A stretch of 64,000 bases of DNA from Balanoglossus misakiensis (lineage: Eukaryota > Animalia > Hemichordata): contig CM082587.2 of the NCBI GenBank assembly GCA_040954595.2, forward strand, positions 5,258,206 to 5,322,205. Direction: 5' to 3'. The notes beneath the pieces are model-generated. The model was given only the letters and a program-made list of their open reading frames with translations. It ran no database searches and was not told the DNA's origin. A program made the translations under genes and the position numbers. This document shows positions 13,062 to 62,088 of the stretch, piece by piece; the first letter of the stretch is position 1, and each line of letters opens with the position of its first letter.

Positions 13062-13254
13062 GTCACATTTAAGTTCACCAAGCACAACATTTCAAAGAAA
13101 TACATGACAGTTGAAAGCTGACACTGTTTGATTGAATATATCATCTGTTCAAAACATGGAAAAACAAAACTTGTCTGACGCACTAAGATTTGCTCACTGG
13201 GAACAATTCAGAGATCACACCAATCCCAAAGTGTTGCTACCCACCCACAGTTCT

Positions 13255-17545: not shown

Positions 17546-17644
<99 letters not shown>

Positions 17645-21739: not shown

Positions 21740-21776
<37 letters not shown>

Positions 21777-33200: not shown

Positions 33201-36200
33201 GCACGGAGAATTAACGGTGTGACAAAAACTCTCTATTGGCCGAAACTGCCGAAAAAGAAAACACTATTAACTAATACAGTTAAAATGAAATTGGAGTTTT
33301 GCTTAGGCCTATGTTATATTGAAGGGCGCCCTTTTGTTTTGTGACGGAGGTAACTGAGGAGCGTTATATTTATCCGGTGACAGTGTGTGACTGGGGTTGA
33401 ACGCGGAGATTTGTCTGAGTACAACTCAAGAGGACAAATTAATTAACTTTGATAATAGAGAATAGGTCTGGGTGTTTCAATATAAATAGATCATAAAACT
33501 AAATGGCATGTCTTGTCATGTCATGCACAAAAGATGGCTGCTTGTCCATTATTTGAATGCACCATGCTGTCTTTATAATACCAGTCAAGGTTTGTGTTCA
33601 ACGAACGTGCGTTTATTTTGAACGATTTTAGCATTGTTCATGTTGGATGGTTGCTTACAGGAGCTGTCAAATATCGAAAAGCCATGAAACACAATAAACG
33701 TATTGGTGACCCACGTGAAACAACTGTAAAATCAACCCCATGAGCATGCCTATGGCTGACGGAAAACGAATCGAGGTTCGGTCTTCTTTCTGAACGAGGG
33801 GGGGGGATACATTTGTTGCCGCACGTTTATTAGTTGTGTAACAGTGCACTAAGTGACAGGTTGGTCTTTAGAACCTGAACTCGCAGCATTTCCCAGGATG
33901 CACCTGTCGCCGTTAGAGGACGTCCATTCATCCTGGGGGCTGTTAAATTGATTGAGTCGTTAGGCTTGGCAGTAAACAACAACATGCTGTCGACATGTAT
34001 CGTTACCCGGCCCTCACACACAGATCTATGAAACGCATATACACTACTTCTACATGTCTCGGAGAGCAATGAAGCACCAGAAACACAACGGGCCCCGCCC
34101 TTAAAAGCAATCGCCACACCTTGTTAACGCTTGCGAAAATCAAGGAGTTCTCGCGCGGAAGTGTTTGACGTTATTACGTGTTCAAACAGTTACACAGAAA
34201 GACAAAACAAAACTGGGCTTTGCTGATAACGTTCACAGAAGAGAAAGTATCGATCCGTTGTTGTTTATCTTGACTGAAAGAAAAATCGACCCCCACAGCA
34301 AATTTCGTAGACTTGACAGCTGGAGGTCAATGGCCACATACGCAAAAAAGAACACCAGTCATGTCCCTGATCGGATAACAAACGGTAACCGTGCCAATGA
34401 CGTCCAATACTTCACTGTAGTGGCCGTACACGTCCTTTGCCAATCGGATACATTTGCAAGAATTTAAGTATTGGTAAATGGTGCCGTCTTCACCTTGATG
34501 ACAAGCGCAATGGCATATCTAATCGATATGTTATCTTCCATTATGTTGACCCAATGACCGTATTATTCTGCCGACCTCTGCTAATGACAACTCACTATTT
34601 GATTTGCTTGTCAGGATACCCGGCAGTGGGAATTCGACAGAAGAAGAAAGACAACGGTTAGCGGATTTTGAACGGTTGAAACAGACGTACAACACTCTTA
34701 CGCAGCCTTGGGAATTCAATGCAAATAGAAGCGCAGAGATCATGTAAGTATTCATCTCTGACGTCATGCAGGGAATCGCTGACAAATGATACCAGAACAG
34801 AGTGTTGAGTGGCTATGATTAATCCTGGGATATTAGACGTGAGGCATCGTTTCCAAGGGGCAATAACAACGGTTGCCATGGAAGCGTTACACTTGCCGCC
34901 GATTTCCAGGAAGTCATAGCGGGATGCTGTATTATAACTGATGCAGATGATTCAACTTTTGCAAGAATATAATTCATATTTGCATCACTTTCGTGCGTCG
35001 ATGCGTTGCGTGAGGCTAACATTTTGTCGTTTTCATTGCAGACATAAGTTAATAAACTCAACACATTCAGAAAGATATTTATTTCTCACGCAAGATACAA
35101 CTCGCATCGGTGACTTGAGACGATACACGCGAGAAGAGTCCATGAGTTTTGTCATTTCAGAAGATTTACATCGGCATTTGCCTAAGGTGAGTCATCGTAA
35201 ATATTTTTCAAATAACCGCTGGTGCATCTCTGGCTCACCAAATGCAATTTACCTTCTTATTTTTTACCTGATGCATCGTTTTATCTTTCAGACAAGGCCG
35301 ATCAACTTCTCCAGAGTCAAGAAATGCAGCATAGTGGGGAATGGGGGGATTTTGAAGAATAGCCATTGCGGCACAAATATAGACAAATCAGATCTGATAT
35401 TCAGGTAAGAATCTCGATCATCACGCGACAAATATTTGAACTAAAGTCACGTGTTTGCCGCGGCCCCTTTTTCGGGACAATAATGAAGAGAGTTAACTTC
35501 TGGTCCCATAGGTGTGCTTTTGAACACGCGGCATTGGTTTCCATGGTTACTTTATTCAGCTCGTGTATGCTGAAAGTATTCACCGTTATAAGCTCATAAT
35601 CATGCCGCTACCTGTGATTGCGATAAATGCTACCTACAGGCATGTGTGGTAATTGTCCTTTCTTTGTATATACACACAGGTGCAACCTGCAAGAATTAAA
35701 AGCATATGCGGTGGACGCCGGGCGTCTCAGCCATTTCGCCACAATGAATCATGGGATCGTTTGGAACAGGTATGGCGAATGTTGATATGGGGAAGGAAGG
35801 AAACCGGTTAAGTTGGAAGCATTACTGGCCCTTTGTTTTGTTGTTGTTTTTTTGTTACGGGATTAACGGTAGAACCAATACGACGAACACTTTATCAGGA
35901 ACCACATGCACATGTAGTTCAGGGAAATTATCCGTCCACGAAACAATACTGGGATTAACCGTAAATGCAGCGTTATGCAAGTGAGAACGAAGAAAGGGGA
36001 ATGTATTGTTGAAATGCGATGGACCCAGAATGTCAATACACAAAGCGAGGCCACCATAAGGGTCGTTCACTGTTATATTAGCCTGTGGTGAATCTATTCA
36101 TCGGTTTTCACTTTGATAACGGAGATAATTCTCTTGGAGTGGCGATGGGGCCTAGGAATTGAACAGAAACCATTGGCCGCCATTTTGTGAGATTTATGTG

Positions 36201-37094
36201 TACATTTATTTATTAATTGTACGGGTGCACATGTCGTGTTCATACCACGAGTGAAAAACTGAGCACTACTGCTACTTCGAATGCATCTACCGTCAACTTC
36301 CGGTAGCTTTGACGCCATGTTGCACTTTAGTCAGGAAGTGACGTATTTTAGGCAAGTTGTCGTATAACCTCGTCCCCGTTCGTCCCACCCATTTTCTCCC
36401 AGGTATAACCGGTTAACAGCGAAAGCAGACATAAAAAGATTTATCGCCGACGTGACGGAGTTCAGCGGCATCATTGCCATCCCTGTCGGGGGACCCAGGT
36501 CGATCACCATGGGCATCAGAGCCATGAAAGTTATGAACAGCAACAAGCGAGTCAAGTTCGTGTTCTTCAACCCCGAGCATTTCCTCTCACACCGAGCGTT
36601 CTGGAGTCAAAACATCACAAGCATCATGTCGACAGGTGAGAACGTTCGCACCTCTACTGTGGATTTCACTGGTGCAGTTTCACTGACTTAGGAAGGGACA
36701 GAAATTACAGGTGGTGTGTTGAAAAACACCGACCCCTCTGTAATTTCTGTCCGGTCCCTTAGCAGGGTAAAACACCGGGTCTTCTGAGACTGTGGTTTGG
36801 CGGGTACCTAATTAAAGCAGCGACCCACAAAGAGATACAAGTAAATTGATGTACTGTCTTTTTTCTCCACTAGGCATGTACCTCACGAGTTTAGCCATGA
36901 CGCTCTGCGACGAAATTCACCTCTATGGTTTCTGGCCGTTTGCGTACGACGTCAACGGCAGACCCATCCCCTTCCACTACACCGAAGACATTGATGCCAG
37001 CAGAGTGACGCACGACATGCCGGAAGAATTCAAACAGCTCATAGACTTGCACTTGCAAGGAGTCATAAAAATACACGTCGGGCCGTGCAGATAA
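30283..37094 (+). CDS. ST8Sia-like sialyltransferase paralog 2, at least 7 exons, about 373 aa
   Basis: Exons 30283-30473, 34615-34743, 35042-35186, 35292-35404, 35680-35769, 36403-36635, 36874-37094; extra stem exons in the 4 kb first intron are possible. TM LVIFCFCLLVYVGVVL; L-motif [30 protein letters not shown]; S-motif [25 protein letters not shown]; motif III FHY; VS HDMPEE; C-terminus IKIHVGPC. Confidence 0.92.
36690..36760. repeat. Short hairpin element (MITE remnant) in the last intron of paralog 2
   Basis: GGACAGAAATTACAG ... CTGTAATTTCTGTCC 15-bp inverted repeat, with inner GGTG-TGTT / AAAA-CACC arms. Confidence 0.6.
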
Positions 37095-37757
37095 CACATT
37101 TTCCCTTTACAAAATGGACAAATAAGAACACGTTTGCGGACAGTGGTTTGGACGTGCATGCCATGCCGGGGACGAGGATGGACGCCATCTTTGTTACTTG
37201 CTCGATGGCTCGGATTTATCAACACGTGGAACGATATGAGATGGTTCGTGCGCTTTGAGTGGGAAAACAAATCAACGCAATCAAGACTTTTAAACGTGCG
37301 ATGACAATCTTACTGGAGCTCGAACCCTCATGTGGGAAGTTTCCAAGTGCATGCACTGTAATGTAATGGAAGTGGTGCTTCTGCTAGTAAAAGGTATCCA
37401 CAATGACACCGGGTTCGTGCGAATGCGCACGTGCGTGCAGGCGTCGCATGGAGCGCCACCAGAGGACGCCAGGCCGGGTTTAAAACCCAGACACGGATAC
37501 TTAACTTCGTCTCTGAAACCGAACTGCTTCTACGTGTGATTTGTCGAGTCTGTGACTTTAAAGTTATACGACAGAGTACCCATAGCGACAGACTGCATTC
37601 CATAAAAAATACTTGACAATCGACAGCTTGATAAAGACTTCGCTATTTTATTTGTACAGACAGAGCTATTTTCTTGTTTCTACCTCAGATCATATTTAAT
37701 AGATTGGTGAATACATTACTTTCGCATCGAAACATTGCAAGATTTATTTTAATCACT

Positions 37758-37817
37758 GATTGATTGATTGATTGATTGACTGATTGATTGGTTGGTGAGT
37801 TGGTTGGTTGGTTGGTT
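37758..37817. repeat. (GATT)n/(GGTT)n microsatellite
   Basis: Seen directly. Confidence 0.85.
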
Positions 37818-39129
37818 ATCGTATATGATAATCATGGATACTCAATGATATTTTATAATATACTATTATATAAGTATTAGCCGTAGGTTTTTTTGTTTCT
37901 CACTATTACTGTTCATTGTATGAACTGCTCTTTCTGTATGCCATGGAAGACCGCCGACTGCATGTAGACAAGCCCTCTTTATGTGAAAGGAACATTGTTC
38001 GTGTTCAGTGGCAAAATGAATCCAGTTCCTGTGATGAATTCGGCAACAATGTCGACTCGACACAGCGGGGATGCTCTAAAGCTGATTTTCCAAGACATAT
38101 AACTGCAGCTGACGTGTAGAAGAACAGTCCGTAGTAAACCGCCAAAAGTTATGCCTAATGGCGATTTCAAATAAGGCAAAGTACTTAATTACTTTATGAC
38201 AAATCAGCAAAAAATGGCGCCCCTGTGCCGCTATGATTCATGGGAAGCAATCGCCATCTTGATTAGCCTCGTCATTGTGAAACGCCATTGCATTTTCCTT
38301 GTATTTTGGTCAAAATACGTCAAGATCACACTGCCTGGGTTTGTGATGTAAACAACGTCATTGTGAACTTCAGAGAGAGAGAAAAAAATCTCGGTAAATT
38401 TTACCACACCAATCAGTCACATTTTCGTGGTAAATTTCACCAAAGTGACAATCGATTTTTAATGAGTCACAAACCTGATTAGTGTAGACGGTTCAAAATA
38501 TAGTCATGTTGAAGCGTATTATTAGCGTATGGTGTATGTAGTTGTTTCAGGAACCGACATTTTTTTTACAAGTTTAGTATTTATTGAACGGTAAATAAAG
38601 TGATATCGAATTTGTTATTAAAAGAAGATGATTACAACATAGTTGTTTCATTTACTATAGATAAACATGGGGGGAGGGCGGGAGGGACGGTTGGTTGGTT
38701 GGTGGGTCATTTCCACATTCATCATTCATGCTGGTTACAACTCAGACATAACAATGCATGCACTTTGATACATTTAATTTCACTTTATTGCAAAACTGAC
38801 ATTCATTAAACATTTCACAAAATACCCAAGGTATTACGCAAGTGGGCAGAGGGGGAATGGTCAATGGCTCTGACTTGGAACCACGGTCACTCCACACAGT
38901 GACCGTGTTGGAACAAAGACATGTATGACGGATGCAGAAGAACAAGCAATGTTCTCAAATGGGAAACATTGTGTTGTTTAAAATTGACCCACCTTCGTTT
39001 ATCCTATTCAACCACAGATCATACTGTACGTGTACTGCATTACGTAAGATAAACCCTTTCACACACGGCTTTATTCATATTCAAATCACAAGAAAACAAG
39101 ATGGCGGCGGAACAGGCAAAGTGGTTGCG

Positions 39130-42100
39130 ATGACATGCAAATCTCGCCCATGCCGTTGTCGGAGATTTCGCAGCGTTTGTCGTGGACATTTGAACAAAGT
39201 TGTCGCTTTCATTGTACTGTTTTCTTGCGCAGTGCTTGTGAGGGAATATGTATGGCGAATTCGCACCAATGGACAAGGCCAGCAACTGAATCCAAGGTGA
39301 GCTCGCCAAGTGCGATCCATCGTTTATTCTGTCCATGTTATTTCAGTGAAAACCATTTCAGGACGGCAATACGGAAGGCCGGGCCGGGTACCGGCGGAAA
39401 CGATACAGTTCCGGATCTTTCGACCAGAATCATTGCCGCGGTATCCAGTCGTGGGTCCTGGGGGCGCAAGTGTCATACCCCTGGAGAAAAGACTCACAAA
39501 CAAACAGTTTATATTGTTTAATGTAGGCCTGTGAACTCATCAATTGATTTTCACTGTGTTCAACTCAAATCCATTTACAATAATCGAAATGCTGGATTTC
39601 CTGGCTCTGCTAAATTGCTTTTACCTTGTAAATTGTTTTTAATTAACTGGGGTGAATTGACATAAAATCGAAAATCGATATTATTTCTCCTACTAGTACT
39701 ATACAGTGTCAACCTCTTACTGTACCCACAATGCAATTTTTGTAATGTGAAGCGACCTTCTAGCACGATTTAAAAACCAAGAAATGGAACAGCGTTAGGG
39801 GGGAGGGGAGGGGCAAAAGCACCTCCTCGTTACAGCGTATGACTGCGGGCAATTACCTTTTTGCGTTTAGAAACAAAATAGCCAACGGTGCATAGTGCGG
39901 ATTAACGCGTTCATACATAATGGTATTTGCTATTTCCAAACATCTGCGCCAGATTGGTTGTTTGGATAAACCCTTTTCCTTTGCTTGTTTCAAATGACAA
40001 TTGCGTGTTCAATGTTTATCCATTACAGGACCCTTACACTCTTGAGAAAGGTGGCATTTACGTGCAAACGGTCATGGTGTTTTCCCCTTTGAAGTGATGG
40101 GCCCGAGGAAATTTCCTGCACTCAAACTAATGAAAGGTTTAACATAGGGAACGCATATCAGTCAACACAAAGCAGATCTTGTACACTCACATGGCACGTT
40201 GACTATTTTAAATCGCATCGTAATCACTTTCCTATCTGCTATCCACAATTTTTTTCTCGTCAAAATCGTCCATTTTTTTCTCATCAAAATCGTCCACCCC
40301 ACAGAAATCAAATGGTCTACCCCTTATACCAGTTGTCCTCTTCCTTCGTCGACAGGGAACGTGGTATCGCGGAATCTCGGACGGAGAATGCGGAATCACA
40401 CGAGACTTCCAGTCTAATGACCGACCACCTGTCAGCACTAAAGGGAATTTACAGAACTCTCTCAAAACCCTGGCGACCCAATAAAGCAGCTTCGAACAGC
40501 TTGAGGTTGGTTTTCTCATCTTCCAGCAATTTTTTTGAAAGTTTCTTGATCCCGGGGAGTGGATGGTTCTCAGTGATAACAATCTCCATAAAATGACGAG
40601 CGAAAAGCTGGACAATTTCAGCGAAATGCCGTCTGATTTCGCCTTCTCTCTCGACAGGAGGGCGCTTCAAACTCACCTGACCCCAGCCAGACGCATATTT
40701 CTTACCAAAGAGACAGCTCACATCGGCGCTACACGGCGGTTCCCTAGGAAACCGACTGAGACATTTACAATAAACAAAAATCTGTATAAACACCTGATAC
40801 AGGTAAGGGGATGTCGTGACGGTTTCGCAATGTAAATGATAGATTTTGTATATTTTTGTCGTCGGTTCTGTTTTGTTGGTGTGTGTAACCTTATGAATTT
40901 TCCTTGAAGAGAGGGCGTCCCTGTTCTCCAGTATTTAACTGTCAAACATGTTCACTTGCAGCTCGGCGAAACAACTTTCGTTTACTGATATCTAACGTAG
41001 AGGGTGCAGGGTGCATGTACTGTGGAGATATTTCAAGAGCGATCTTTATCGTGCAAAATTAGTCAGTGTAGTCTATGTTTGTCACATTGACTTATATATT
41101 AAGCTTTCTGCGGCAGTCTCCTATGCAGTTTAAACAGGTTTGAACCAGTTATAAGCCCGGAGTTATCATTCCGTTTTTCTTCTGGTGGTCAAGACTACGT
41201 TGGCGTGGTATTAGAGCCATTTCTTTCATGTGTACTTGTACCCAGGCAGACCAGCTGATTTAAATCAGATTGACCATTCGCTCAACTTCCACGTGCATAT
41301 CCAATTGCAGGAAAATCCGCTCAATCTGAATGGCTATCAGAAATGCCACGTGGTTGGCAATTCAGGAATTCTGGTCGACAGCCGATGTGGAGAGGAAATA
41401 GACCACGCCGACTTCGTCTTTAGGTGAGAGATGTAATTACAATTTCCTGGAATTTTGATTGCATTGTAAAATGTCTTTAATGCATGGCGCAATGGTGTAC
41501 AGAGAACGACTCTATTAATAGTGCTGTTAATTTCTGATAAAAATAGCCGTTCAATGTTGGCTGAAGTATATTAGTGTGTATTTTTCAGGTGTAATTTACA
41601 ACCTCTTCGGCAGTTTTCTGAAGATGCTGGAATTCGGAGTAATTTGAGTACTCTAAATCCGAGCGTGATCTGGGTCAGGTATGTCAAAATTGCAAAAAAA
41701 TTGAGGAAATGGTGCAGAGTCGCCATTTTATGAACTCATCGGTCGGAAACAAAGAGTTGTAATTTTACTGATTATATGAACTTTATAATAAATCAATGGT
41801 CGTTTTTTCAAAGGTATCAGAGACTGGAAAATGCGAAGGAAAAGGAACGTTTTACAAGCATCGCTTCCGAACATTCTGGACTGGTTGCCGTGCCGACGGG
41901 CGGAGCATCCGGACTGAAATGGTCTCTGGCAGCAATGGATGCACTTAGAAGGGCGCCACTCGCGCCGGAAGTTGTGTTGATTGACCCAGACCATATATTA
42001 TCCGTGAGGGAGTTCTGGAAAAAGAACATCACTGGAACAGCTACAACTGGTAAGAACCTCGGAAACTGATGGTGGCATTTCAAGTTAATTTATTCATGAC

Positions 42101-42451
42101 TAGTGTCGTCTGCCGCATATATTTCCTTTAAATGGTCGTTGTTCATACCGTATTCGGTTCACGAAAACGCCATTTTCATCCCATCGTTTTCATTCTCGTT
42201 CTCATCGTTTTCATCCTCATCGCTGTATTTTAGGCATGTACTTGACGACAGTAGCTCTGCTTTTATGCGAAGAAGTTCATTTATACGGATTTTGGCCATT
42301 TTCTTACAACCACGAGGGACGACACATTCCCTTCCACTACACACAGGACTTGCAGAAATCAAGTGTTAATCATCACATGCCGGAAGAATTTAACTTGTTG
42401 GTGAACCTTCACAAAGATGGACTCCTTAAAATTCATATCGGTCCATGCTGA
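39130..42451 (+). CDS. ST8Sia-like sialyltransferase paralog 3, 7 exons, about 389 aa
   Basis: Exons 39130-39296, 40305-40505, 40658-40802, 41311-41423, 41589-41678, 41814-42049, 42234-42451. TM VVAFIVLFSCAVLV; L-motif [30 protein letters not shown]; DAG...LNPS; S-motif [44 protein letters not shown]. Confidence 0.93.
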
Positions 42452-42830: not shown

Positions 42831-44996
42831 TTAAAATGCACAATGTGTATGAGTTTTGTGGTTTTTGTCGCCCGACCACGGACCTAAATTCTCAATGCCC
42901 CCTTCCTCGGAACACAAGGAATTCCACTTGGCGTAAGCTTCTTTGCAAGTCTTGTCGCATTCCCAGGGGACCTGGAAGTCCACCGCGGACCCTCGGTAAT
43001 GATAAGATCTCGATGAGTGACAACCTCCAGCAAGCTCATTTACCTGCCATGAAAGTACGATTTTAATTAATTTTACATTTAATAGCACAGCACGACTTCT
43101 GGCCTCTACACAGCTTCTTAGGGTCGGTTTACAATGGAAAGTCAGTATCTATATTTGTATTTGTCAAGACGTCAGACGTCACTTGAGCTTATGAACCTGT
43201 TCATTATTTCCATAATCTCCTACACTTGTGATGAAGACTAAAAACTTTCTCTAAACCCTTAAGATCTATTACTATTCCGATTGTGATATTTATGCAAATC
43301 TTAATTATTTTGTAAAACCTAAATTATCAAATATGGTTGGCTTAAACAAAACCTACCGTCACTTTTCCAACTTCGTCAGCAACCCTTTTGACATATTTCA
43401 ATACTTTAACATCCAAACAAACATACCCTCCTGGAGCAGAGACCTTACAACCACTTGAAATATAACAAGAAAACAATCGCACCATATTATTAATACAATG
43501 TTATAATGTTCTTGTCAAAGTGTAATAATGAAAGATATTTTTACCAAGAGAAAATCGTGTCTCAGTGTATTTATGCAGACCATATAGCAGTACTAATAAG
43601 GAATTACGCGATTAACAGGCCATTAACCACTGTTTTTCACCCACAATGCAATTATTAGAATGTGATTTGACCCCTACCACGATGTAAAACCCATTTAAAG
43701 AAAGTAGGAATTGTTTCCCCGCGAAGACGGAACGTCTCTTAACCAAAATTTAACACGGGTTCGTTAGCTATTAACAAAATCGCATGAACAGTCATGAGGT
43801 CCCTTCAAATCAAACTACTGACCCCATACTAGTGATTTATAAAATCCTCCATCAAGAATACTTACGCGTATGATGATCTTTTTGCTTTTCCGCCATAACA
43901 AGTGTCATTGATATTCTGCAATGGTTCCGCTCCATCCTTATTTCCGGAAGTATGGTCGTGCCAGGATATGTTGCCATGATCACGAATCTGACAAGCTAGT
44001 TTACTCACTTCCTGTCCACATTCTGCAAAGACAGATACAGTACGTACGTCGTCCGTGTCAAAAGTATTGAAGTTCGCTGCTAGTGCTGCTGGTGCCTAAT
44101 CTGTATCTGACGAGTGTAGGTCCCGCTTTCACGAAACTTACCGGTAATACACTGCAAAAGCAGCCCCAGTTTCCTTCTACATTGTACCATGTATAGGTAA
44201 TTGCACGCGTAATGTTGCGTTACGCTTGGTATCACCACACTTGGATGGATGGATGGATGGATGTGTTTTTGAGCGTTTGTGTTGATGGGCTGAGTGTGGG
44301 GTGGATCGAGGGGGGATGGATGAATGCATGGATCAACTTTGGAGAGTATGTCTGTTGTTGTCGTCTTCGTTATTGTTGTTGTGGTTCAATTTCGACAAGC
44401 AATGCTAAAGAAGTACCATGTTTTACCGTCGAATGCGCAATGTGTGTATCCATCCTGACTGTTATCTGGGCCCGTATTTTCAACTGCGCCTTCCTCGCCG
44501 CAGATCCTTTTCCACTCAGTGTGTGCATTATCACTAGGTACTTCTAAATCGACGGCAGTTCCCCTGTGGTGTCTGGATGAGTTCGAATGACAAGTGCCCA
44601 CCAGACTCTTGACCTACATCACCGGGATAATATTTATGTCAGTTGTGGAGTTATTTTCAGTTGGCAATGTGCTAGCGAAGATCAATTTGAAATCTAAAAT
44701 CTCCAAACGAAGGAAAGGAATGGCCCAAGTTACCTTTACTGGCCCAATCTCCTTGGCGATCTTCTGGATATATCTCAACGCACTCTTCTGAAGACACACA
44801 TAACAACTCGGCGTAACCTTCTGATCGCACGAACAACTAAAAAGACAGACATACGCAAGTTCTAATTCTGATTGGTATGTCGAATATTTTGGTAAATTGC
44901 CTATGTACGTCCAAACTACGCATGTACCTTATATTGATCAACAATTCCTCTGTAAATTGAGGAGTAGATTAGAAGACATTGTTTTTACAGTCTTTA

Positions 44997-45093
<97 letters not shown>

Positions 45094-48000
45094 TGTCCTA
45101 GTCATAAATGAAACAGATACTAGTAATGCAAAAAGTGCATGAGTGCACGAGAGTCAAGCATAAAGTCGATCATAGAGATGAATAGCAAAGAAAATCTTCG
45201 CGCTGAAGTTAATAGCAACTAACGCTGGTTTCTTGGCTTGTCCACCATCGCAGGTGTCTCTGATATTTGACTGTGCATCAGTACCGTTTGAAGAACTATT
45301 AGTTGATAGCGTAATATTTTTGGACTTCAATATCTCACATGCCAGTTTCCTCACTTCAAGGCCACAGTCTGTATAGAAGGTAATAAAACAATGAAACAGC
45401 AATGTAAGGGTACATTAGATACGACAGTTCGTTGACACATGTCTGGGCGTGAAGACTAGATTGTATTTCTCACAGAAGCTGGGAGAGTATCCCCGAGATA
45501 TATAAAAGAGCACAATGGATGACACATTGATATGACGTCACTTACGACAATTAGGATATCCTGTGCAGCACACCACATTAGAATCCTGCCCGGAACACTT
45601 TCCATCGACGTACGACATGTTTGGACAGCAGTCAGCGACAACACATCGACCACCTTCAGCTTCGCAGGAGTATTCTTGAAATGAAACTGGGAAAACAAAG
45701 GGATGTTATCGTCTGTCAGTTAGTGCTCTCTGTTACTCCCGAGGAGAAAATATAAGAGTCTTTTAATACATTTTAAATATACGAAAAGATTCAACTCACG
45801 GCATTTCACTGGGAGACTCTGGCAGCACTTTACATTAGGCCCCTGCGTTGGACACTTTCCACGCACGTAGTTATTATCGGCACAGCAACTCCTCACAGTG
45901 CATCGACCCCCGATGGCTGCACAATTATCCTCTTGATAAGGACCTAGATGAAAGAACATGTTTTGTCACATTCAGTGGACATGGTTGTGTGTCTAGCCAA
46001 ATACAGATACGAATACCAGTCACGTGGCCAACTCGGGTAGATCATGTCACAAAGAGAGGTGTTCCCCCCCCCCCCACACAAAAAAACAAACAAAACATTT
46101 TCAAATTCACACCGTCACACATTTGCATTGTTACTCTCTTAATAACCGAGAAGACTTTATTACTCTCGGCCGATCTGCAGACAAATCCCACATACCTTCA
46201 CTGTAGCTGTTCGATTTAAGACAGCATTTGACATCGCCCGGTAGATTTGGACATTTGTTTGGTACGAAGTTACCACCCGAACAGTCACTGGTATATTTAC
46301 ATTCTCCACCTATAGCTTTACACGCTTCCCTGTTGGGTGCTTAAAGTATTTAATAAACGTGTTAGTAAACATATTTTAGGAAGTTTACTTTTGATTATAT
46401 TATACCAGTATATTGATGGTGTAAATCACGCTATTTGATTGGTCGAGACACGACACGTGACCGTGATATATTAGCCATATACCACAGTCATATATCATAG
46501 TTAAAGAAAATGCCTTTTTAAAATGTTTTATGCAAAGTTTCAATATACTGGCATAATATAATAGCAATAAAACACCCCCAGCCATGGTATACCACTCGAT
46601 TTTGACCAGTTCAACTCCATATACGCACTCGCTATCGCTCGTGCGTATATGTCGTGAACTGGTCAAAATCTCGTGATATACCATGGCTGGGGGTGTTTTA
46701 TTGCTTAAATTAAACATGTCTTGAGATACGATAAAAACCGAATCATCCGCACTTATACTTATAGAGCTGTGAAAGTGAAAGAGACGGTATAGGTATAGCT
46801 TTTTAAATGGCTGGCTTTTTTAATCGTATGCAATTATCCGCGAATGAATGTTATACATTGTGAATTCAGCATGTAAAGTTGATATTGGTTGAGCAAAGTA
46901 AAGGTCTGATGATATGATAAATAAACTCACGTTCTTCCTGTGGGGGGCTCACGGCAAGTTGGTTGCTGGATAGAGCATCTGAAACTACCTCGCCGCCCTT
47001 TGAAATGGCCGAATTTTCCGGCGAGGGAAATTTCATCGCGAGACATCTCCCAACTTCATTGTTGAACAAATCGAGGACTCTCACGTCGAAAACGTGCACG
47101 TGGGTCCTTATTCTCGTATCGCCATATTCCTTCGCCATATCGTAACCATAAATATTTGCAATGACGTACATCACCAGTGCATTGAAGAAAGCTTGAGCCT
47201 GGATGCTGCCTACAAGGTGTAGAGTGGAATACTCTTGAAGTGGGTTGTATTGCTACTCAACTTCCGGGTATATGACTTGCATTGGAATAGAGGTCAAGGG
47301 TGAATATTACCCCCGGCAGTCATAATTATCATGGTATACTATTTCCTCAAATGTTATATCGCAACACGGACTATTGCTCCGTAGATCAACCCCTTTTCTA
47401 GTATTTTCGTGAAATAAAGGAGGCATCAATAAATGGATCTTGTCAGACTCTGACAAGTCTTTCCAAATTAATCGGAAATTGCGGACACCGTTACAAAGAA
47501 ACGATATGTTCTTGTCATCATGAAAATTGTCGCATGATGTGGTCGTCGTCTTTGCACGGTTGCGTTGAGTTTTGGCCAGGTGACATATATATATATATAT
47601 AGGGCGCAATTCATGGCCTACCAGAGACCCAAGTCTTGCACCTAACTTCTCAGCGAATCAGATTACTGGTGTCAGATCAAACATATTATAATCATGTCTT
47701 ATTTTACCTGTTTCGCCGAACTTTTCCTTAGTAACAAATTCGCAGTCAACGATAATTGTATTCAGATCCGCCCTTGGGTTCACCACAGCGAACAGTACAT
47801 CTCTGCTCCCATATGGATCAAAATGGAAAGACTGGTACAAGTCTTCTTCGCTTGGACGTGTCCTGGGCATGCGCAATGCATCTAAAACCACATAAAATAC
47901 GCTAAACGTACTTTTTCAAGGCATGCGACTTTTAAATCACAATATTTTAGAGAGTGTAGAACGTAGTTGACGCATGGATGGATGTCTGTCTGTTCGCTTT

Positions 48001-49043
48001 TACTGTACATGTTATACTATCTCGTGATCTCGAGAAAGTATCTCGTGATCACTATGATATCTCGCGATAGTATCTCGAGATCTCGAGGTATTTTTTTTCG
48101 CTTTGCAAATTGCCCCTTACATGGAGGTTCATACCATACTAAAATGTTTAGTAGAAATTTCAATCGTACCGCAAGCATTTTGACGTTTGTGCCTTTCGCT
48201 TTGCGAGTCTTCCACATCGGTCAAGTCCTTTCCTGATGAATATGCAACCTGGACAGAAGTGTTCAAGAGGAAGTGAACGTAAAACCGACTATGATGTAAA
48301 GCAAATACACACTGTCACAAAGGCAGTTCGTGATCTAAGCCACAATTATGGTGAATTATGAAAAGTGTTATGTTTGACAGGGGTCTTGAAAGCTTTTGTA
48401 CTTGGTACTCGGGAAACTAATGTTGTAAAGGTCTACTCGCAGTGCGGTCACTCAAGTTTATAATACAAATATTCGCTTATCAGTACAAACACTGGGAGTA
48501 CGAACAACCAATTGAACAAACTACATGGGTAAACAAAAGGTAAATATGTACAGAGAATTCAGTCGCTTTTTCGTGTGTTTTTTTTTCCATAAGCTCCGCT
48601 GTCAGTGACGCGAAACCTATCAGAAATGCCGACTGTCCGTCGTCCGCCCTACGTACGCCACCAATTGACTTCTTCTCTGAAAACTGCTTGCCCGAGTACT
48701 TTGCAATTTCTTATGATGGTTCCCAGAGGTTTGTTAAAACTGTGATGAAATAAGCATATTCGTATTTTTGGAGCAAGTTTTGCTGTTTAGTGGAAAAATG
48801 TTCTTCTCTGACACGATGCAAAAGTGAACGTTCGCGGTGACAGTTTCAGCTGGTCTTACCTCGCACGACTAGGTCAACACCAGCAACGGAAGTGGTTCGG
48901 TGTTTCCACAGAAATACAACACGGACGTCGTTTCAAGACATTCGCAGTCTGGACTATATAAAATGAAGCGAAGTTTTGACCTCAGAACTTACCTTGACCA
49001 GGAGGATACATGCGATTAAGACAGTTGAGCTGGACAGCTTCAT
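42831..49043 (-). CDS. Secreted protein: signal peptide, RHKR pro-site, three Cys-rich repeats, two tandem Zn D-Ala-D-Ala carboxypeptidase-like (peptidase M15/LAS fold) domains; 11 exons, about 486 aa
   Basis: Exons 48993-49043 (MKLSSSTVLIACILLVK), 48170-48248 (VAYS...RHKRQNAC), 46196-46339, 45800-45943, 45546-45686 (each CxxxGGxC...C...KC.....VxCC), 45224-45368, 44734-44836, 44427-44613 (domain 1: SRHHRGTAVD...YTHCAF), 43866-44022, 43357-43453, 42831-43043 (domain 2: AKRSSY..APGGYVCLD..AGGCHSSRSYHYRGSAVD...HTHCAF). All junctions are GT-AG and phase-compatible, giving 1461 nt open. Confidence 0.82.
45001..45093. repeat. (CAT)n microsatellite, about 31 units
   Basis: Seen directly, intronic. 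Confidence 0.97.
46563..46705. mobile_element. Fully palindromic MITE-like element, about 143 bp
   Basis: AGCAATAAAACACCCCCAGCCATGGTATA at the left is the exact reverse complement of the right end. Inner arms GATTTTGACCAGTTCA / TGAACTGGTCAAAATC and CATATACGCAC / GTGCGTATATG; AT-rich flanks. Confidence 0.8.
46866..47891 (-). pseudogene. Intron-nested, intronless decayed reading frame with a DUF6973 / Wnt-core-like C-terminal motif
   Basis: ORFs 47658-47891, 47307-47609 and 46866-47174 share one frame, broken by stops at 47658, 47307 and 47253. The C-terminal part reads QAQAFFNALVMYVIANIYGYDMAKEYGDT...VLDLFNNEVGRCLA. Confidence 0.55.
48014..48090. repeat. Short palindromic minisatellite of TATCTCGnGA units
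   Basis: Repeated tatctcgtga / tctcgaga / tatctcgcga units; the whole block is self-complementary. Confidence 0.6.
48585..48812 (+). mobile_element. Fragment of a non-autonomous interspersed repeat (HINE/DINE-1-like)
   Basis: T-run start, (CGTC)-like tract, then TTCTTCTCTGAAAACTGCTTG...TTTGCAATTT subrepeats resembling those at 63050-63250. Confidence 0.45.
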
Positions 49044-50969
49044 TGTTTCGACCGACAAGGGGAATGTGGCGGGTTCAAGCAACGACAGTCTGCTGATCTG
49101 CAGACACCGTTAGGCCGTCGTCAAGGAAGTTATCCTCAAACATTGAGCTCAGGTGATTTTTTAAAGTCTTCCTGGTGCGATGTACTGTAAGATCCGGGGT
49201 TGACCTGAGATAGCCTTTGCTTACAACATAACAATAGGATATTGATTTACCTTCACAAAATACACGGTGTCGTGAGTTTGTTTGACGTGGAATCATTCAA
49301 CGGCGACAGCAGTCGTTATGGTAACCGGCACGGCCACTCTTCAAGAAAGATTAAATGCATTTACAATGTACTTCAAAGTACCTCTGCACCTTTCACGATC
49401 ATGCGTCAGTTGAATAGGTTTACAACTGCATGCACCCGTCTGGTCGGATGTCGGCGGGGGTCGAACCGGAGGTTCGAGTTATTGCTTCGTCCATCTTACA
49501 CTGTACACCGCAAAATCCCGTGAAATTGTCCTTATTTGTGATTGTAGTGATACATGTTATTGTAGTAATACTTAGAGATCAGAAACTAATGCACATAATT
49601 GGTAATATTTTCTGAAATCCCTGCAGAAACACAAAGGGCCCAATATCTGAAAGCAGTGCAGTTTTATAGAAGTCTGGATGTTAACGCTGGTAATGATAAA
49701 GGAAAATAGTATACTGTCTCAATAAGAGTGCACTTGGAACACTACATTTGTTGAATATATTAATAGCTTTATTGTCTTATCTTTAATAAATAATCACCAT
49801 TTCGGTTTTTGGAAGTTCCTGTCTTTTCGAGGGGTTAAATAAATAATATAAAATGTACAATAAATCATGTGGGAAAAAATCTGTATATAAATTATCTCGC
49901 TGAAAAGTTTACAAGTAAAAGTTGATAATAAATCTTAAATATACCAACAATTAAACAAAGCCGAAAATTCAATTATTTAAACTTAGTATCCGACAAAAGT
50001 TTCGAGGTATATACATTCGCACACCAAAATTCCCAGGTAAATAGTGGATCCAGAAATATACATGAAAGCGCTGTATATTGTGAAACACTGCTACCTACAT
50101 TGGTAGCTATAAAATACCCCGAGGGTCTCTATAGGCATTTAAAATGACAACTTTGACGATAATTCCTAAAAGATCTAATATAAGATAATATGAACTGAAT
50201 GTATGTATGTATATACACATTGATACATAGTTGATGTTTAAGTTCTTATTATAATACGAATGTTGTCTAGGAAACCAAAGTGATGCACAATGCAACCACT
50301 GGCTACAGGAGTACATGCATACTGTACTGGATGATTTAATACACGTATATTCCTTTGAAACTACCACGCATTTCTGTAATATTCATAGAAGACATACAGC
50401 TTCTAAAATCCCAGAACGTTGTTTTACCAAGGCCAACTGGCAGTTGCTCCAATTAGTATTCTGGTATAAATTGTACTTCACTTTTCTTTAATTCTGCTGT
50501 ACTCATCACTTGGAATGTTTGACTGTCCTATCCTAACGTCAGCTGCTTCAAACTGCTACAAATACGTCGAATTTCTTTCCACTTGACATAAAACTCTTAC
50601 ACCAAAGTTTAAACGTGACGAGACAAAGATTAAAAAATATATTAATAAACACAAATGTACTGTATACTTTGTAAACTATTGGAATAAATATGAGTTCGTA
50701 TTGCGTTTGTAAATACAAATATTTTGGAATGGTACTGTATGAACAAAAAGTATTTTCATGTTTTGCATAATTAGACAGAAAAGTATTGTCAATGGAATAT
50801 TGCGCACTGGAAAAAAGATATATTTAGAAAATGGATCGTATCATGAAATATTTGTTGCCCAAATACTGGATGTCCGCGAGGACTAATAGGTTACTATTGG
50901 GTTAAAATATTGGGTTAATACCGATTGTGCTTTAAATCCCATCACTTCATGACACAGAGTATTGGCCTT

Positions 50970-53900
50970 TTATAATTCATCTTCTTCGTAGTCAGCAAAT
51001 GCCAGATCGACAGGTTTACTCGGGCCATTTCGGAAGATACCGGGTCTGATCGGAAGGGCCACGTCTTCTGCATGCTTGACGACGCTCTCCACGTTCTTGA
51101 GGAATTCTGTTCCAAACTGGCCTTCGTCTTCGGGGGCGTTCTCGTCGACGGATTTGTGGATGTTGGACACGGTCTTGGACAGATTGCCCATGTTCTCGAA
51201 CATGTCGTTTTTGAAGCCGGCCACCTCTTGCTTCAGCTGTAACATGTACGTTTCCTGTGCAGAATTTTCCTCTTCGTCGCCCTTTTTGTCGAATATGTAT
51301 CGCTTGACCAGCTCCTTCATCAATGTCTGTTTAGTTAGAAATTGAGACAATTTAGAACATTAGAACATGCAGTGTGTCTGTTTTATACCACAAGTTTACA
51401 TATTGATGACTGATGGAAAGCAATTGTGACTTATATCATTGTACTGACATAATATTTATATTGGATAACTTACCTTGTATTCCTGATCCTTTATTTCCAC
51501 TTTCAAGTTCTTTTTCTGTTCACGAAATTAAAAGAATAAAGCAAAATGAATTCCTGACCATTCATACGCAAATGGCTAGAATAAAAACTGTCTTGAATGG
51601 CATTGCTTTCTTGAATTCAGACATCAACATATTTATTTGATGCGGAAATGTAATTACATGCATTTTTGTACTGTGATCATTTGTGTCATCTTGTCACATG
51701 GCCGATCGAACGGGAATGTTGTATACATATTTGCAATCAGTAAGCATCTCACTCTTCATTAGCCGTCCAGATTTTATAGATGTGATATTACAAATCTTGT
51801 CTATGTTCATATGATGAATGGCTACACTCACTCGGTTTCTCGCCTTCTTTCCTTTCAACATTTTCGACGAGCAGAATTCTTGAATCGTTCCATAAGAAGG
51901 TATCAAGTTGAAGGGAGGCGACAGCGAGGAAGATTCCTCGTAGTAACTCATCCACAACGTCGATCTCGCAAACTTCCACTGGATATCAGAATCGTCCTGA
52001 GGAGAAATGTGCATGAGTTATTTTTGTTTTAATCCGTGGGGGAGCTGTTGAACTTAGATCCCAAACGTATTTTTGGAAAGGGGGAATAAGATGTTATGCA
52101 ATAATACTCATTAAACATTAATCACTCCCGTGTATGTCATGAATTACTGGAGAGACTATTTTTGTACCGATGTCTGTCTGCATATCTGCATTTTACTCGG
52201 TACGTCGAGATATATGATTTACACACATATTTATTCCATTTAACATAAATGCAAGTGACCATATTTACGACCCATCCCCGGAAAGAATTTCGTGACGCAT
52301 TGCACACACGAGCATCGTAACCGACCATAACTCTTCACTGGGCAAGCACAAATATGCGGCAATTTGCAGTGCCTATTGGGTTTAAATTGATGAATAACGC
52401 ACAAGGCAATTCGGTATTCCGTTAAAAACTGAGTCAGAAACCAGGAAGTCGACTAACCTGAAGTGTACCATTTATTAAGTACATGGCTAAAAGCAGTAAT
52501 GGCTATAAAATAGTCCCGTCCAGTCCACCTCGCTAATATAGTTCGGGACACTAAACTCAAACATTACCGATTCCATTCATTACGGGACAGACGTGTGGGG
52601 GGAATGGGGAACACGGTCATAATTTGCAAATAAAAACATGTTTCGAAAGAGGGCCACATTTCACAGACAACGACAGTCGAGAGACCCCCCCCCCCCCGGC
52701 GATTCCCTCCGACCCATTTCCCATTGTAGCAACTGAATCCCTCCGCCTACCTCAATCCTCGTGTATGTGTTGCTCATCATCGCAATCAAGATGTTCAGCA
52801 GGGCCACGATGGCAATCAGCTGGTACAGCGCAAAGAGGAAGTAACCGAAGAGCTCCGTCACCCAGTGGTTGAGGATGGTGATCTCCAGCGTTTCTATGGG
52901 AGTCATGCCGAACAGAGACCAAAACAGGCTCATGAGAGCCGCCTGGAAACTGAGGTGAGGGAAAACACTGACGTTAACAACACAACACATTAATTTGCAT
53001 GTCTGCTATAGATTTCGTCTGACACCTGTCTGTGCACCACCTGCACGTGGACATTCCCTTCTTTGTTATGTTAACCTGATGTTGTTATGTAAACAACAGG
53101 CTGAAGAAGGTATTACTATGCCATCTGACACAATTGAGTGTTCCAGGTGCACGTTTGTACTTGCTGTGCTGGAATTACTTTTCAGACGGCGAAATACTAG
53201 ACTTACTCTTTGTACGGAATCTTACACCTGGGTTCTCCATGGCTGATGCAATCGTATAACAGGTCCGCCGTGTAGAAATTGTACAGTTCGCTCATTCCAA
53301 CGGAAAACGCCACAAGGATCAAGCTGAAGAGAACGAGGAACTTGACAATGTCGCCTCCCATTCTCCCAAACGAGATCTGCATGGGTCCTATCTGCAAGTG
53401 CACGACGGTCATGCGCGCCACGCCCAGGAAGCTGAACACCTTCGCGATGGCAATGAAGCCCGTCCCAATCAGTATAGGATGCGTGGCTGACAGCGAGGAC
53501 ATTGTTGTCTGGTTCCTGCTGACGTAAGGAGTCCCGGCAGTGCCCTGTTTGGCACTGCCACCGATCTTGACCCTAGCTGGCGCCCTTTTCGCTCTGTGTC
53601 CTGCCGAACCCGTACCTGTGGCGTACTCGTCTCCCCGGAAGTTGGGCAGCACCTCTCCGAGCTGATTTTGAATCCGGGTTTCCTCTTGTTGAAGCTCCTC
53701 TAGTCTGCTGAGAAGCCCCTGAACGGTTTCTGGAGTTCCATCGTACACCACACTGACATTGATGGCCTTGCTAGTTTCCAGCGGGTGATATACAGTAACG
53801 GAGGGGGACATCATAATAGAATCGTTCTGTATCACAGCATGCTCCAATTCTATTTTTGGCTCCAAAGCTGTCTGTAGGACAAAACAGACACAAGATAAGA

Positions 53901-56900
53901 CAGTTTGACGCTATATGCAAGACATGAATGTACAATTCAAGGTCTCAATATCTGAGCTTTCGTATCAGTGGCAACAAATCGACTGCACGATTCTTTTCCC
54001 GCTAAATCTCTTACCTGCCAGATGACGTATAATCGACAAAGAAGCCATGCCCAGTACAGCGCCAGTGTTATAATGTCGAATGCCTTCCCTTCCATGTTTT
54101 CTGTGAACATCGCAACCCCTTTGTTGACAACCAGGCTTACTTCCTTCCACGTCATCGCTGTTGAACATTCGCAAAAGAAAAGACAATAAATGACATTCAG
54201 AGCTACTAATGTTAGGCTCTAGTGCCCACGTGTTGCGTGTTCACCTGCCAAGCTGTTTGATCGACTTGCAAGATAAATTTTGACCAAAGGCACATTTTAA
54301 TGAATGAAAAAATCGGTGCAACTGACCTAGCAAGAACAGCACGATTAGCCATTCCCACACAGACAGCGTGACGTTAACTCCAGCAACATCATCGTCTGCG
54401 TCGTCCTCCCTAACTTCCGAGTTGCTGAACGTCACGAAGTGGGCCACCAGCAGAGCCAGGAAGGTGAGCTGGGAGGCGGCGTGGCACAGGTACCTGACGT
54501 AGGGCGTGTTGAGATACGCCCCCGGCCGAATCTTGCGCGACACGACGTAGCTGGCGCTGACCAGCGGGAAGCACAGCATCACGAGCATGGAGAGGAGCAG
54601 TCTCCTGGTCGATGCCATGCGCCGCCAGCTTTCAAGGCCGTGGTACCACCTCTCCACCAGGCTTTGCTGGCAGTGTGGGTGGGCCACGAACTGGAAAAGG
54701 AACGATGAAAATCAGGTTTTCACAAATGATGTGGACTACAGAAACAAGGATGGTCGACATCTTTAAATTATGCAAATTAGCTAATGATAAATGGCAACAT
54801 TTGTCTACAGCTTGTATAAAACATTTGAGTCTTCTTACAAGCCTGGCACTCAGTTCACCAGATTAGCAACGGTCAGTATGGTCAAAGGTATCAGTACATT
54901 TAATAGTAAAAAAATATATGGGTGACACCCAACACGTACATGCACGTACCACACCCTCCAATATTTGCCTTTTAAAACGCAAATACTAAAATCCAATTAT
55001 TTTTGAACATTAAGTAATAAACTCAATTTCCTCGCTAATTGGTAAATTATTCTATACCATCCGGTGCGTTGTGTACCAATTTGCCGCCGGAAGACAGAGT
55101 TAGTTTATTTGTCCTGCCAAGTGATGCGAATTTAATGTCACCTTATCCGGGCAATCGTGCATGTATGTTATTTTCCAAGGTTAGTTTGACACGGTGCCCG
55201 CGGTACATCCGTCATCCTCTGAGGCTCCACGTTATGACCCTTTCAACCGTGGAACGACGGGTTTCCAATGCTGCTTGACGCGTTTGCGAGGTTTTGGAAG
55301 GTGCACGTACGAGCCCCCAACTCTGCATACATAGGCATAGCCACGTTTTCCACAAACGTACCCAGTTTCTCTAGTTCGAGTCAGTACTGTACAACATGTA
55401 TTTTCACGAACCGATGAAGGTTATGAAAAGTTAGCGACAGTTGGTGTTTTAATGAGTCAATAATGGGTTCTATCTTAGTAATGACACGGTCATTATCGGC
55501 GTGATATTTGAGACAGAAATCATTTATTAAAGAGTGCGATGGCCACATCTAACAGGAAAAGACGAAAACCAAAAATACAGGGGACGTGAAAATTGCGAGA
55601 TCGCATTTTACCGTAACTTCATGTGAATTAGCCTAAATCCGATTTCTGAAGCTATTTAGACACGAAAAAGTAAGTAAGGCCAATCCGAACCAGACTTCGC
55701 ATGCTCTCGCTATACTCTATTAGTACAATGACCCATCAAACATCATGATTTTTCAACTCTAAATATATCTAGTTTTATTTATTGCAATTTATTTCGTTAA
55801 TTACTGCTCTCAGGCTTTTTGATACATTAAGGCGCCATAAGCAAAAGCATGGCACCAATATATGTGAAGACTGGCAAGGGTAAACAACATACATGTCCAT
55901 TGGATGTACACCTTCTGTTTGTATTAACGATTAACTTAATAGAAAGGTCCAGCTGTCGTGGAAATATTACCAGCATATAAAAACAATAGTAGAACTAGTT
56001 ATTTTCGATCTGCCTAGCCTAGCAGTGCGCACACTCGTGATTTCTAAATTTAGGACATCATTTCTATTTCTCATACTATACTGGTTGCTTCATCTCAGAT
56101 CATTGCACCGAACATCTGAGACCTTCCAAAAGTGCACGGATAATATGCGTCGCTCACCGAAACTTGATTGTGAATGATCGCTGTCAAAGGGACACTTTCC
56201 TATAATTATGGAAATTTTAAACCACAAAACATTCCAACCGGTACCGACCGGCTCACTCTGTGGAAGCCAGGTGGTCAGTTCAGTTAGACGCAGATGTCGT
56301 CTGCGTACATGTAAATTCTCGAGATTTTTGTTCACGCAATCCCCGTATCTCGAAAGCCAACTAAAGTACGTGTGACTTGGCGTGTTGTCTACTCCACACC
56401 CACGGGGCGAACATCTATACATGCACCCATTCAGTTTGTCGCCAACAGGTGTACTAGTAATACCCGCGTCATTTTTAATGTATAGACGTTGATGATGTTT
56501 ATCTGGCTGGCGGGAATTGCCATAGTCACCCAGAATGCAAGGCGGGTGACGGTCGGTCGACGCTGCCTTCCGAGCGAACTGGGTGCAAGATCGAATGACG
56601 CTTGCTTTCAAACCTGCAAGATGCAACCCCAGTCCTGCTGACTACAGCAAGGAACATGAAACTTTTATTAGAAGTTAATGATGCTGTCGCTGGGAACGAC
56701 GTTCACAGTACTGCTGTCATACATTCTGATAGTAACCCCGCCCCAGGCCTTTCTGATGCCCTTAAACTTTTTTCTATTGAGCACTTGTTTTCGCGAATCG
56801 TGCGGATAAACATAGGCGTATGCGATTCTTGAAACAAAAACATGTGAACAAAAAATTAAAATGCGGGAGTATACTGTTTATATTCATCACTGGTGATCAC

Positions 56901-61686: not shown

Positions 61687-62088
61687 GACTGCCTTTTTTG
61701 TTCAGACAAAACTCTTACGTATTGGTATTGGTACTGTATATACTATATGGACGCACATGGGCGCAGCGCGCGTGTAGTGTGTCAGCTAACTCGAATGTCG
61801 ATGGGCGGGGTATATTTATACCGATGTCCTAATTTACATAACAATGTTTTAAGGACATGACAATTTAAGCTCATGCGGCAGTTTCATGTTTTACAGTGAA
61901 GCGAAGTAAATATTCTCGCTTGTCGCATTGATATTAATCCTGCCTACTCGGCTGCGCAGATGGAAATTTATTTTCCTGAATTAACGGGAATTGAGGAGGT
62001 CGTTGGCACTGCACTAAACTGTCAATTGGGACCTATGTTATTCCGATCGCGATTAAGTCAAGTGCACTCGGTCACGTAGGACTGAAAA

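Follow-up and report, generated by a model that had tools for sequence, protein, structure and literature searches.

Secreted animal proteins that join cysteine-rich (Cys) repeats to an M15 peptidase domain have been described as the rusticalin-like proteins, for which a bacterial origin was proposed and among which rusticalin itself lacks part of the active site (PMC6339383). In 63 of 124 annotated proteins such repeats occur together with cell-wall hydrolase domains (PMC7379824), and in a placozoan lysozyme a repeat of this type stabilises the proprotein before being cleaved off (PMC12855814). A second system, the Min-Wnts, includes bacterial toxins encoded beside an immunity gene; members in Saccoglossus, rotifers and fungi are described as catalytically active and mainly standalone, and metazoan Wnts as having lost the pocket residues and as carrying Cys hairpins and a lipidated-Ser loop (PMC12419801). 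Here we describe a predicted gene in a 64,000-nucleotide stretch of the hemichordate Balanoglossus misakiensis (assembly GCA_040954595.2, contig CM082587.2, positions 5,258,206 to 5,322,205 of the forward strand; hereafter the window), which would place a degenerate Min-Wnt domain, Cys repeats and two M15-like domains in one secreted protein. The Min-Wnt fusion is the most surprising part of this gene. The repeat-plus-M15 design is already published for rusticalin (PMC6339383).

The gene runs on the minus strand from an ATG at 49043 to a TAA at 42831. Joining its 13 exons by coordinates, with splicing predicted from genomic DNA alone, gives 1914 nt and 637 amino acids (aa) with no internal stop, and every one of the 12 introns is GT–AG. 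The guanine-plus-cytosine (GC) content of 12 of the 13 exons lies above or close to that of their own introns (0.41–0.52 versus 0.33–0.46). The encoded order is a signal peptide, an acidic pro-piece with an RHKR site, a domain of ~150 aa from exons 3–4, three Cys repeats and two peptidase-like domains:

48993..49043, minus strand: exon 1, aa 1–17, signal peptide core (gtaagt donor, hydropathy)
48170..48248, minus strand: exon 2, aa 18–43, end of the signal peptide, acidic pro-piece, furin-type RHKR site at aa 36–39
47708..47881, minus strand: exon 3, aa 44–101, N-terminal part of the Wnt-fold region, probably with helix 1 (by eye)
46931..47209, minus strand: exon 4, aa 102–194, predicted Min-Wnt/lipocone helices H2–H5 (profile, HHalign, DUF6973 and fold matches)
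46196..46339, minus strand: exon 5, aa 195–242, Cys-rich beta-defensin-like repeat 1
45800..45943, minus strand: exon 6, aa 243–290, Cys-rich repeat 2
45546..45686, minus strand: exon 7, aa 291–337, Cys-rich repeat 3 (Defensin_beta E = 0.0094, below the cut-off)
45224..45368, minus strand: exon 8, aa 338–385, N-terminal part of M15-like copy 1, family RSSY motif gone
44734..44836, minus strand: exon 9, aa 386–420, middle of M15-like copy 1
44427..44613, minus strand: exon 10, aa 421–482, copy 1 zinc site H435/D442/H478, with Q473 and Y476 at conserved His positions (degenerate)
43866..44022, minus strand: exon 11, aa 483–534, N-terminal part of M15-like copy 2, RSSY present
43357..43453, minus strand: exon 12, aa 535–567, middle of M15-like copy 2
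42831..43043, minus strand: exon 13, aa 568–637 and stop, M15-like copy 2, with H576, H582, D589, H629, H632 and H634 all present

This layout agrees in most respects with a sequence-only reading of the locus, which had named a signal peptide, a dibasic RHKR site, three exon-encoded Cys-rich modules and two tandem domains. The N-terminus is hydrophobic (top 11-aa hydropathy 3.0 at residue 8), with a cleavage site that we infer; RHKR is classed as furin-type by the furin consensus; each repeat is its own phase 1–1 exon; and both tandem domains carry SxHx6D plus a later His. By comparison, the ten introns counted there become 12 in the joined model, and its inventory left out the domain of exons 3–4 altogether. 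The two peptidase copies are encoded by three exons each with matching intron phases 1, 2 and 0, indicating that their duplication was later than intron gain.

The identity of the exon-4 domain emerges from several sequence comparisons. A Pfam scan gave DUF6973 at 14.3 bits (E = 0.031), below the cut-off of 27, and no match for exon 3. A tblastn search of plasmids with exon 4 returned one record (E = 1), the C-terminal tip of a Paracoccus LysM protein with a BamE-like gene next to it; this tip matches DUF6973 at E = 3.5e-24, and the Paracoccus locus has the toxin-plus-immunity-gene layout described for Min-Wnts (PMC12419801). With a profile of eight other bacterial Min-Wnts, the exon-4 frame ranks first among the 893 open reading frames of the window, and a profile of 53 independent Min-Wnts aligns H2–H5 over aa 108–192 at 21.7 bits, a score reached by 0 of 5000 shuffled controls (maximum 5.6). 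HHalign of exon 4 against Min-Wnt gives 91% and E = 9e-7, in an alignment that includes the Paracoccus tip.

In H2, residues Q107, F110 and N111 stand in place of D, R and H (an alternative register puts a Gln at the His position), and in H3, R134 and I135 stand in place of His and Glu. The H4 motif of D148, N151, N152 and G155, invariant in 31 of 31 aligned rows, is present. The domain thus shares with Min-Wnt/DUF6973 toxins the compact H2–H5 core, the D-x-x-NN-x-x-G motif and helix 5, whereas the H2 Arg/His and H3 His/Glu kept in the toxins are replaced. Exon 3 aligns to helix H1 only without confidence, and probably includes it. As predicted from these comparisons, exon 4 is the core of a degenerate Min-Wnt/lipocone domain of the SAW clade. 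This is distinct from the animal Min-Wnts described in PMC12419801, which are intact and mainly standalone; here the domain is degenerate and fused to domains of peptidoglycan-peptidase type. Against PDB sequences at E ≤ 10, exon 4 matched two Wnt-5a entries only (E = 0.55), and its helix 3 resembles that of Wnt-5a. A truncated metazoan Wnt, considered on account of this match, was rejected, as the domain has no Cys hairpins (three Cys only in aa 40–194, with H2 continuing straight into H3) and the Min-Wnt H4 Asp and H5 are present.

No second example of the fusion was found among the proteins searched. Of 222 collected best-match relatives, 214 carry the peptidase domain, always in one copy, and the best Min-Wnt match in the whole set is no better than E = 3.3. 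A word-based search of longer proteins with exon 4 as query, itself weak evidence, yielded 64 candidates and none at E ≤ 1, and DUF6973 is found in 0 of 5 bacterial genomes carrying the M15 domain. Separately, 72 viral-contig loci (L067–L138) encode Min-Wnt-like domains.

A structural counterpart of the family may already exist. BteO (PDB 9uu0) matches the Min-Wnt profile at E = 9e-08, and the terms 'Wnt' and 'DUF6973' are absent from its paper (PMC12541434). According to that source, BteO of B. fragilis is non-enzymatic and grips the C-terminal domains of OmpA through a groove, with an interface that includes R, H, H and E. BteO seems to be a Min-Wnt whose structure has been solved and whose function has been tested, and one reported to be non-enzymatic.

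The two C-terminal domains belong to an uncharacterised M15A-like subfamily near the Streptomyces albus G DD-peptidase (1LBU) and Hedgehog-N. The family profile has 1LBU as its sole PDB sequence match (E = 0.0025), in an alignment that spans the zinc motif and the GPG..H..HxH tail; copies 1 and 2 score 130 and 157 bits against this profile. Fold comparison was made with a predicted model of the Ptychodera homologue P0001 (predicted local distance difference test, pLDDT, 76), which matches Hedgehog-N (Z 8.2, root-mean-square deviation (rmsd) 4.3, 121 aligned), 1LBU (Z 8.1, rmsd 3.6, 108 aligned), VldE (Z 8.0) and Ply500 (2VO9; Z 5.7). Foldseek with the homologue model ranked 1LBU on top with no match at E ≤ 0.001, and an ESM Atlas search with the homologue peptidase domain returned bacterial clusters (TM 0.84–0.87). 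These matches bear out the LAS/M15A fold that the sequence-only reading had proposed (LAS as defined in PMC6027127), and its likeness to bacterial proteins holds as well, copy 2 being up to 43% identical to bacterial domains. Exon 13 alone gave one match only to PDB sequences, a spurious antibody. As compared with 1LBU, the subfamily shares the Hx6D motif, the G..E.LGPG..H..HxH tail and the fold, and its bacterial members likewise carry peptidoglycan-binding domains; it differs in a shorter loop before the first His, which has an invariant His and no SxxR, and in an extra N-terminal part with RSSY. Hedgehog-N shares the LAS fold and the pattern H-x5-H-x6-D ... HxH. Identity in the structural matches to Hedgehog is 16–24%, the base position is His here and Glu in Hedgehog, and neither the exons nor the homologues have a Pfam match to HH_signal or Hint.

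The single-domain relatives of the subfamily occur in hemichordates, echinoderms, molluscs, one protist and many bacteria. With exon 13 as query, hemichordate and sea-cucumber proteins matched at 53–57% identity, and the six candidates did not include the protein encoded in the window itself. A family profile search gave 81 proteins, in which hemichordates and four echinoderm classes rank first, followed by 58 non-animal rows that are mostly bacterial where named and ~31–49% identical to the Ptychodera query; PG_binding_1 occurs in 18 and a chitosanase domain in 2 of these 58, and a crude peptidoglycan-binding motif in 24 of 42 loci from named genomes. A HMMER search found 1232 representatives at E ≤ 0.001, and among the best 150 examined, 20 Cys-rich or otherwise animal-like ones were looked up, of which 11 are molluscan and one is from the protist Telonema subtile. 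Ambulacrarian and molluscan homologues (for example P0001, 55% identical to copy 2) share the peptidase subfamily and the Cys repeats and have one M15 domain and no Min-Wnt in all 214 domain-bearing proteins collected. One locus (L050), a split gene, was excluded from the profiles, and one match (H1), antisense to annotated phage genes, was discarded. Among individual members, L054 (P0002) is an intronless transcript-like contig that encodes a signal peptide, a single Cys repeat and the peptidase domain; the linker that follows RSSY in it is short, as in bacteria, although L054 groups with ambulacrarians. Patella and Littorina members (P0090 and P0170 clusters) are labelled 'lysozyme 3' and 'lysozyme 1-like' yet contain the M15A-like domain. 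In P0015, P0016, P0177, P0220 and P0151 the peptidase domain is joined to other N-terminal modules, of which that of Acanthaster is somatomedin-B-like (a weak match) and those of molluscs are other domains without family assignment.

The two copies differ in the state of their active sites. Both have the H-x6-D zinc motif (H435/D442 and H582/D589). In a survey of 117 family domains (21 animal-type and 96 other), the positions of H576, H582, D589 and H634 are invariant (117/117), and those of H629 and H632 are His in 114 and 116, respectively. Copy 2 has all conserved positions, including H632-T-H634. By comparison, copy 1 retains the zinc ligands H435/D442/H478 but has Y476-T-H478 for HxH and Q473 for the family His, and the invariant Ser, Tyr and Asn positions are also lost. 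The full HxH signature is thus in copy 2 only, and with both further histidines gone from copy 1 the product is not the double active enzyme that had been supposed. Copy 1 is likely a zinc-binding pseudo-peptidase, as judged from its residues, in which D474 might act as a stand-in base. In the family-profile alignment, H629 and H632 align with H192 and H195 of 1LBU, which have catalytic roles. In several gastropod members the H629 position is occupied by Glu, which fits a general-base role; in the model proposed for Sonic hedgehog (Shh), E177 is the base and H135 holds the substrate (PMC4102407).

Among described animal proteins, the rusticalin-like ones of tunicates, amphioxus, coral and Trichoplax come closest in design, with a signal peptide, repeats resembling beta-defensin and tick carboxypeptidase inhibitor, and a C-terminal M15 domain (PMC6339383, PMC7379824), and with two introns within the peptidase domain, as in each copy here. 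The tick inhibitor is also a weak match for the repeats in the fold comparison. The repeat spacing is Cx6Cx5Cx8-9Cx7CC as compared with Cx6Cx6-7Cx8Cx7CC in rusticalin, the second gap being shorter by one residue. The present protein differs further in having three repeats, two M15 copies and the Min-Wnt domain. The rusticalin-like peptidase has been matched to the phage A500 L-Ala-D-Glu peptidase, whereas here 1LBU is nearer (Z 8.1 versus 5.7 for 2VO9), and in the survey table of PMC7379824 Peptidase_M15_4 is the family given for 6 of the 7 metazoan M15 entries, whereas here M15_3 scores above M15_4. Judged from the published descriptions, the M15 subfamily thus looks like a different one from that of rusticalin.

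The phylogeny bears on how the M15 domain reached animals. A FastTree analysis covered 137 of 254 domains over 143 columns, with near-identical sequences removed and the root placed on a Streptomyces sequence without test; sequences were called eukaryote-type by name, or else by Cys content or repeats. The 38 eukaryote-type sequences, including Telonema, and one other form a nested clade (support 0.62), in which ambulacrarian and molluscan sequences cluster (31 sequences, 0.75) and the window copies sit within a 14-member ambulacrarian group (0.94); copies 1 and 2 are sisters in both trees (0.875 and 0.90). Relatives in hemichordates, echinoderms, molluscs, a protist and bacteria indicate that any transfer is old. 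The sequence-only reading had proposed horizontal acquisition, to be examined by phylogeny: bacterial kinship and the nesting among bacterial-rich branches agree with it, and the event appears old and weakly resolved. The M15 domain is likely bacterial in origin, and its transfer would have taken place before the mollusc–deuterostome split, or more than once. A phage vector gained no support, as 299 pattern matches in viral contigs gave one weak locus. A rival that concerns origin alone holds that the subfamily was not an animal-specific transfer and entered eukaryotes earlier or repeatedly, with wide loss. The repeat-plus-M15 member in Telonema and the weak backbone at the eukaryote-type and ambulacrarian–mollusc nodes speak for it, and we regard it as a serious possibility, although a less probable one than not; the diversity is far greater in bacteria (99 of the 137 sequences are not eukaryote-type), eukaryote-type sequences fall in one nested group, and no fungus, plant, vertebrate or ecdysozoan is named among the 20 representatives looked up, 12 of which carry a name.

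The function that we favour, with moderate confidence, is that of a secreted protein directed against bacteria, for defence or for digestion of food bacteria. The protein would be secreted through its signal peptide and cleaved after RHKR. In copy 2, zinc would be held by H582, D589 and H634 with H629 as the general base, and H576 may help hold the substrate, like H135 in the Shh proposal; the predicted substrate is a bacterial cell-wall peptide, copy 2 cutting the stem peptide of peptidoglycan by a zinc-water mechanism. Copy 1, the three defensin-like repeats and the degenerate Wnt-fold domain would serve binding or stabilisation and not catalysis. The repeats may alternatively form a stabilising pro-part, as in placozoan lysozyme (PMC12855814), and the Min-Wnt pocket may now bind an envelope lipid or protein non-catalytically. 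The repeat-plus-M15 core would be an old bacterial acquisition common with molluscs; later, in this lineage, the three-exon peptidase unit would have been duplicated and the Min-Wnt module added as a phase 1–1 exon pair.

The Min-Wnt assignment has fold evidence on its side: the exon-4 model (92 aa, alignment-guided with 30 viral-contig Min-Wnts) forms four helices with pLDDT 93.9, and of 48,161 chains compared BteO ranks first (Z 9.3, rmsd 3.4, 87 aligned) and WNT8A second (Z 7.9, rmsd 3.4, 85 aligned). Several points weigh against our reading. The fold match is partly circular, since the model was built on a Min-Wnt alignment, and its Z scores lie below the ~13 advised by the tool for helical bundles; Foldseek, run with this 92-aa model, returned nothing at E ≤ 0.001. 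Because the model is alignment-guided, the Z scores modest and Foldseek empty, the Min-Wnt identity rests mainly on the sequence tests. Loss of the R/H/H/E of the BteO interface suggests that the exon-4 domain may not bind BteO's partner, and exons 3–4 are skippable without frameshift. On the peptidase side, every Pfam M15 score, for exons and homologues, is below the curated cut-off (Peptidase_M15_3: exon 13 16.5 bits, homologues at most 22.6, cut-off 23.2; M15_4 on the exons is weaker, E = 0.07–0.09), and no activity is reported for any subfamily member in the literature found. In M15A DD-carboxypeptidases the Arg of the SxxR motif binds the substrate, and no SxxR precedes the first His in this subfamily; the conserved Arg of RSSY might stand in for it. 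Copy 2 has small insertions close to its last His residues and a branch of 0.52, longer than in most ambulacrarian members, and may be drifting. Finally, the eukaryote-type clade has low support and contains Telonema.

Of the functional alternatives, the one that survives best is a non-catalytic pattern-recognition or opsonin-like protein, in which all modules, copy 2 included, bind the envelope and cut nothing, comparable to rusticalin. Of the three domains derived from enzymes, two are degenerate, and some family members (P0014, P0022) have lost histidines, in line with such a role; copy 2, however, has every invariant residue, like most named animal homologues, and we consider this alternative unlikely.

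The gene model itself may be overjoined: exons 3–4 would then be a Min-Wnt insertion, skipped or decaying, within a phase-1 intron, and the main product would comprise the signal peptide, the three repeats and both M15 domains. The end of exon 2 and the start of exon 5 are both phase 1, the fusion is absent from the 222 collected proteins and from the word-based search, and the conserved pocket residues are lost in exon 4. Nevertheless, exons 3 and 4 are bounded by canonical splice sites and contain no stop in the frame required (chance 0.026 and 0.003 at intron composition), their GC of 0.47–0.49 compares with 0.34–0.40 in the flanking introns, and the fold-building residues are retained in exon 4, which makes overjoining improbable.

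Least probable of all, and in our view very unlikely, is a host-directed signal or matrix protein in which the degenerate Wnt-fold and Hedgehog-fold domains act as ligands on animal cells, repeating the enzyme-to-ligand path of Wnt and Hedgehog: metazoan Wnt shows a similar loss of pocket residues (PMC12419801), helix 3 resembles Wnt-5a, the subfamily His lies six residues ahead of the first zinc His as H135 does to H141 in Shh, and Hedgehog-N is level with 1LBU as best fold, but the exon-4 domain has no Wnt Cys hairpins or lipidated-Ser loop and retains helix 5 and the Asp typical of Min-Wnt, the M15-like domains have no HH_signal match, the fusion is seen once, and Cys repeats mark antibacterial enzymes (PMC7379824).

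A broader and quite unlikely proposal is that animals here domesticated a bacterial Min-Wnt toxin independently, that the toxin lost its pocket residues as true Wnt did, and that it was shuffled into one secreted protein together with two Hedgehog-fold peptidases, one active and one inactivated. The gene may then be a living intermediate in which the bacterial ancestors of the Wnt and Hedgehog folds are changing from weapons to modules for binding or signalling, and its Wnt-fold part may engage a lipid or a host receptor.

The gene lies among neighbours of ordinary animal type within the window, and these neighbours, together with the 12 spliceosomal introns, rule out bacterial contamination. 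We named the neighbours ourselves from their translations, and the family names, including that of a sialyltransferase cluster, are our assumptions:

12162-12749, minus strand: netrin-like exon
~13250-22900, minus strand: DHX9-like helicase exons
~50900-61700, minus strand: TRPC-like channel exons

At least three tandem genes, which we take to be sialyltransferase-like, occupy 28500–42450 on the plus strand, with alike terminal exons at 28966–29280, 36816–37091 and 42104–42448; the cluster ends tail-to-tail with the peptidase gene, ~380 bp from its stop codon. Long frames overlap at 40093–40934, where the minus-strand frame presumably represents a piece of a reverse-transcriptase retroelement. 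Within the peptidase gene, intron 8 contains a (CAT)n microsatellite at ~45000–45095, and intron 4 an inverted repeat of ~150 bp at ~46560–46710 that resembles a miniature inverted-repeat transposable element (MITE).

Literature searches, with subscription papers and the architecture supplement of PMC12419801 outside their scope, found no paper on the M15A-like subfamily or the Min-Wnt fusion. To the known animal arsenal against the bacterial wall, comprising lysozymes, amidases and rusticalin-type M15 proteins, our analysis adds a further M15A-like subfamily, apparently unstudied, in echinoderms, hemichordates and molluscs. That BteO appears to be a non-enzymatic Min-Wnt bears on the lipid-cleaving activity predicted for that family. 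The Balanoglossus gene is predicted to unite a Wnt fold of bacterial type and a Hedgehog fold, both degenerate, within one secreted animal protein, and the fusion offers a test of the proposal that Wnt arose from an inactivated Min-Wnt toxin with its pocket kept, by asking which binding partner such a domain may have after its residues are lost.

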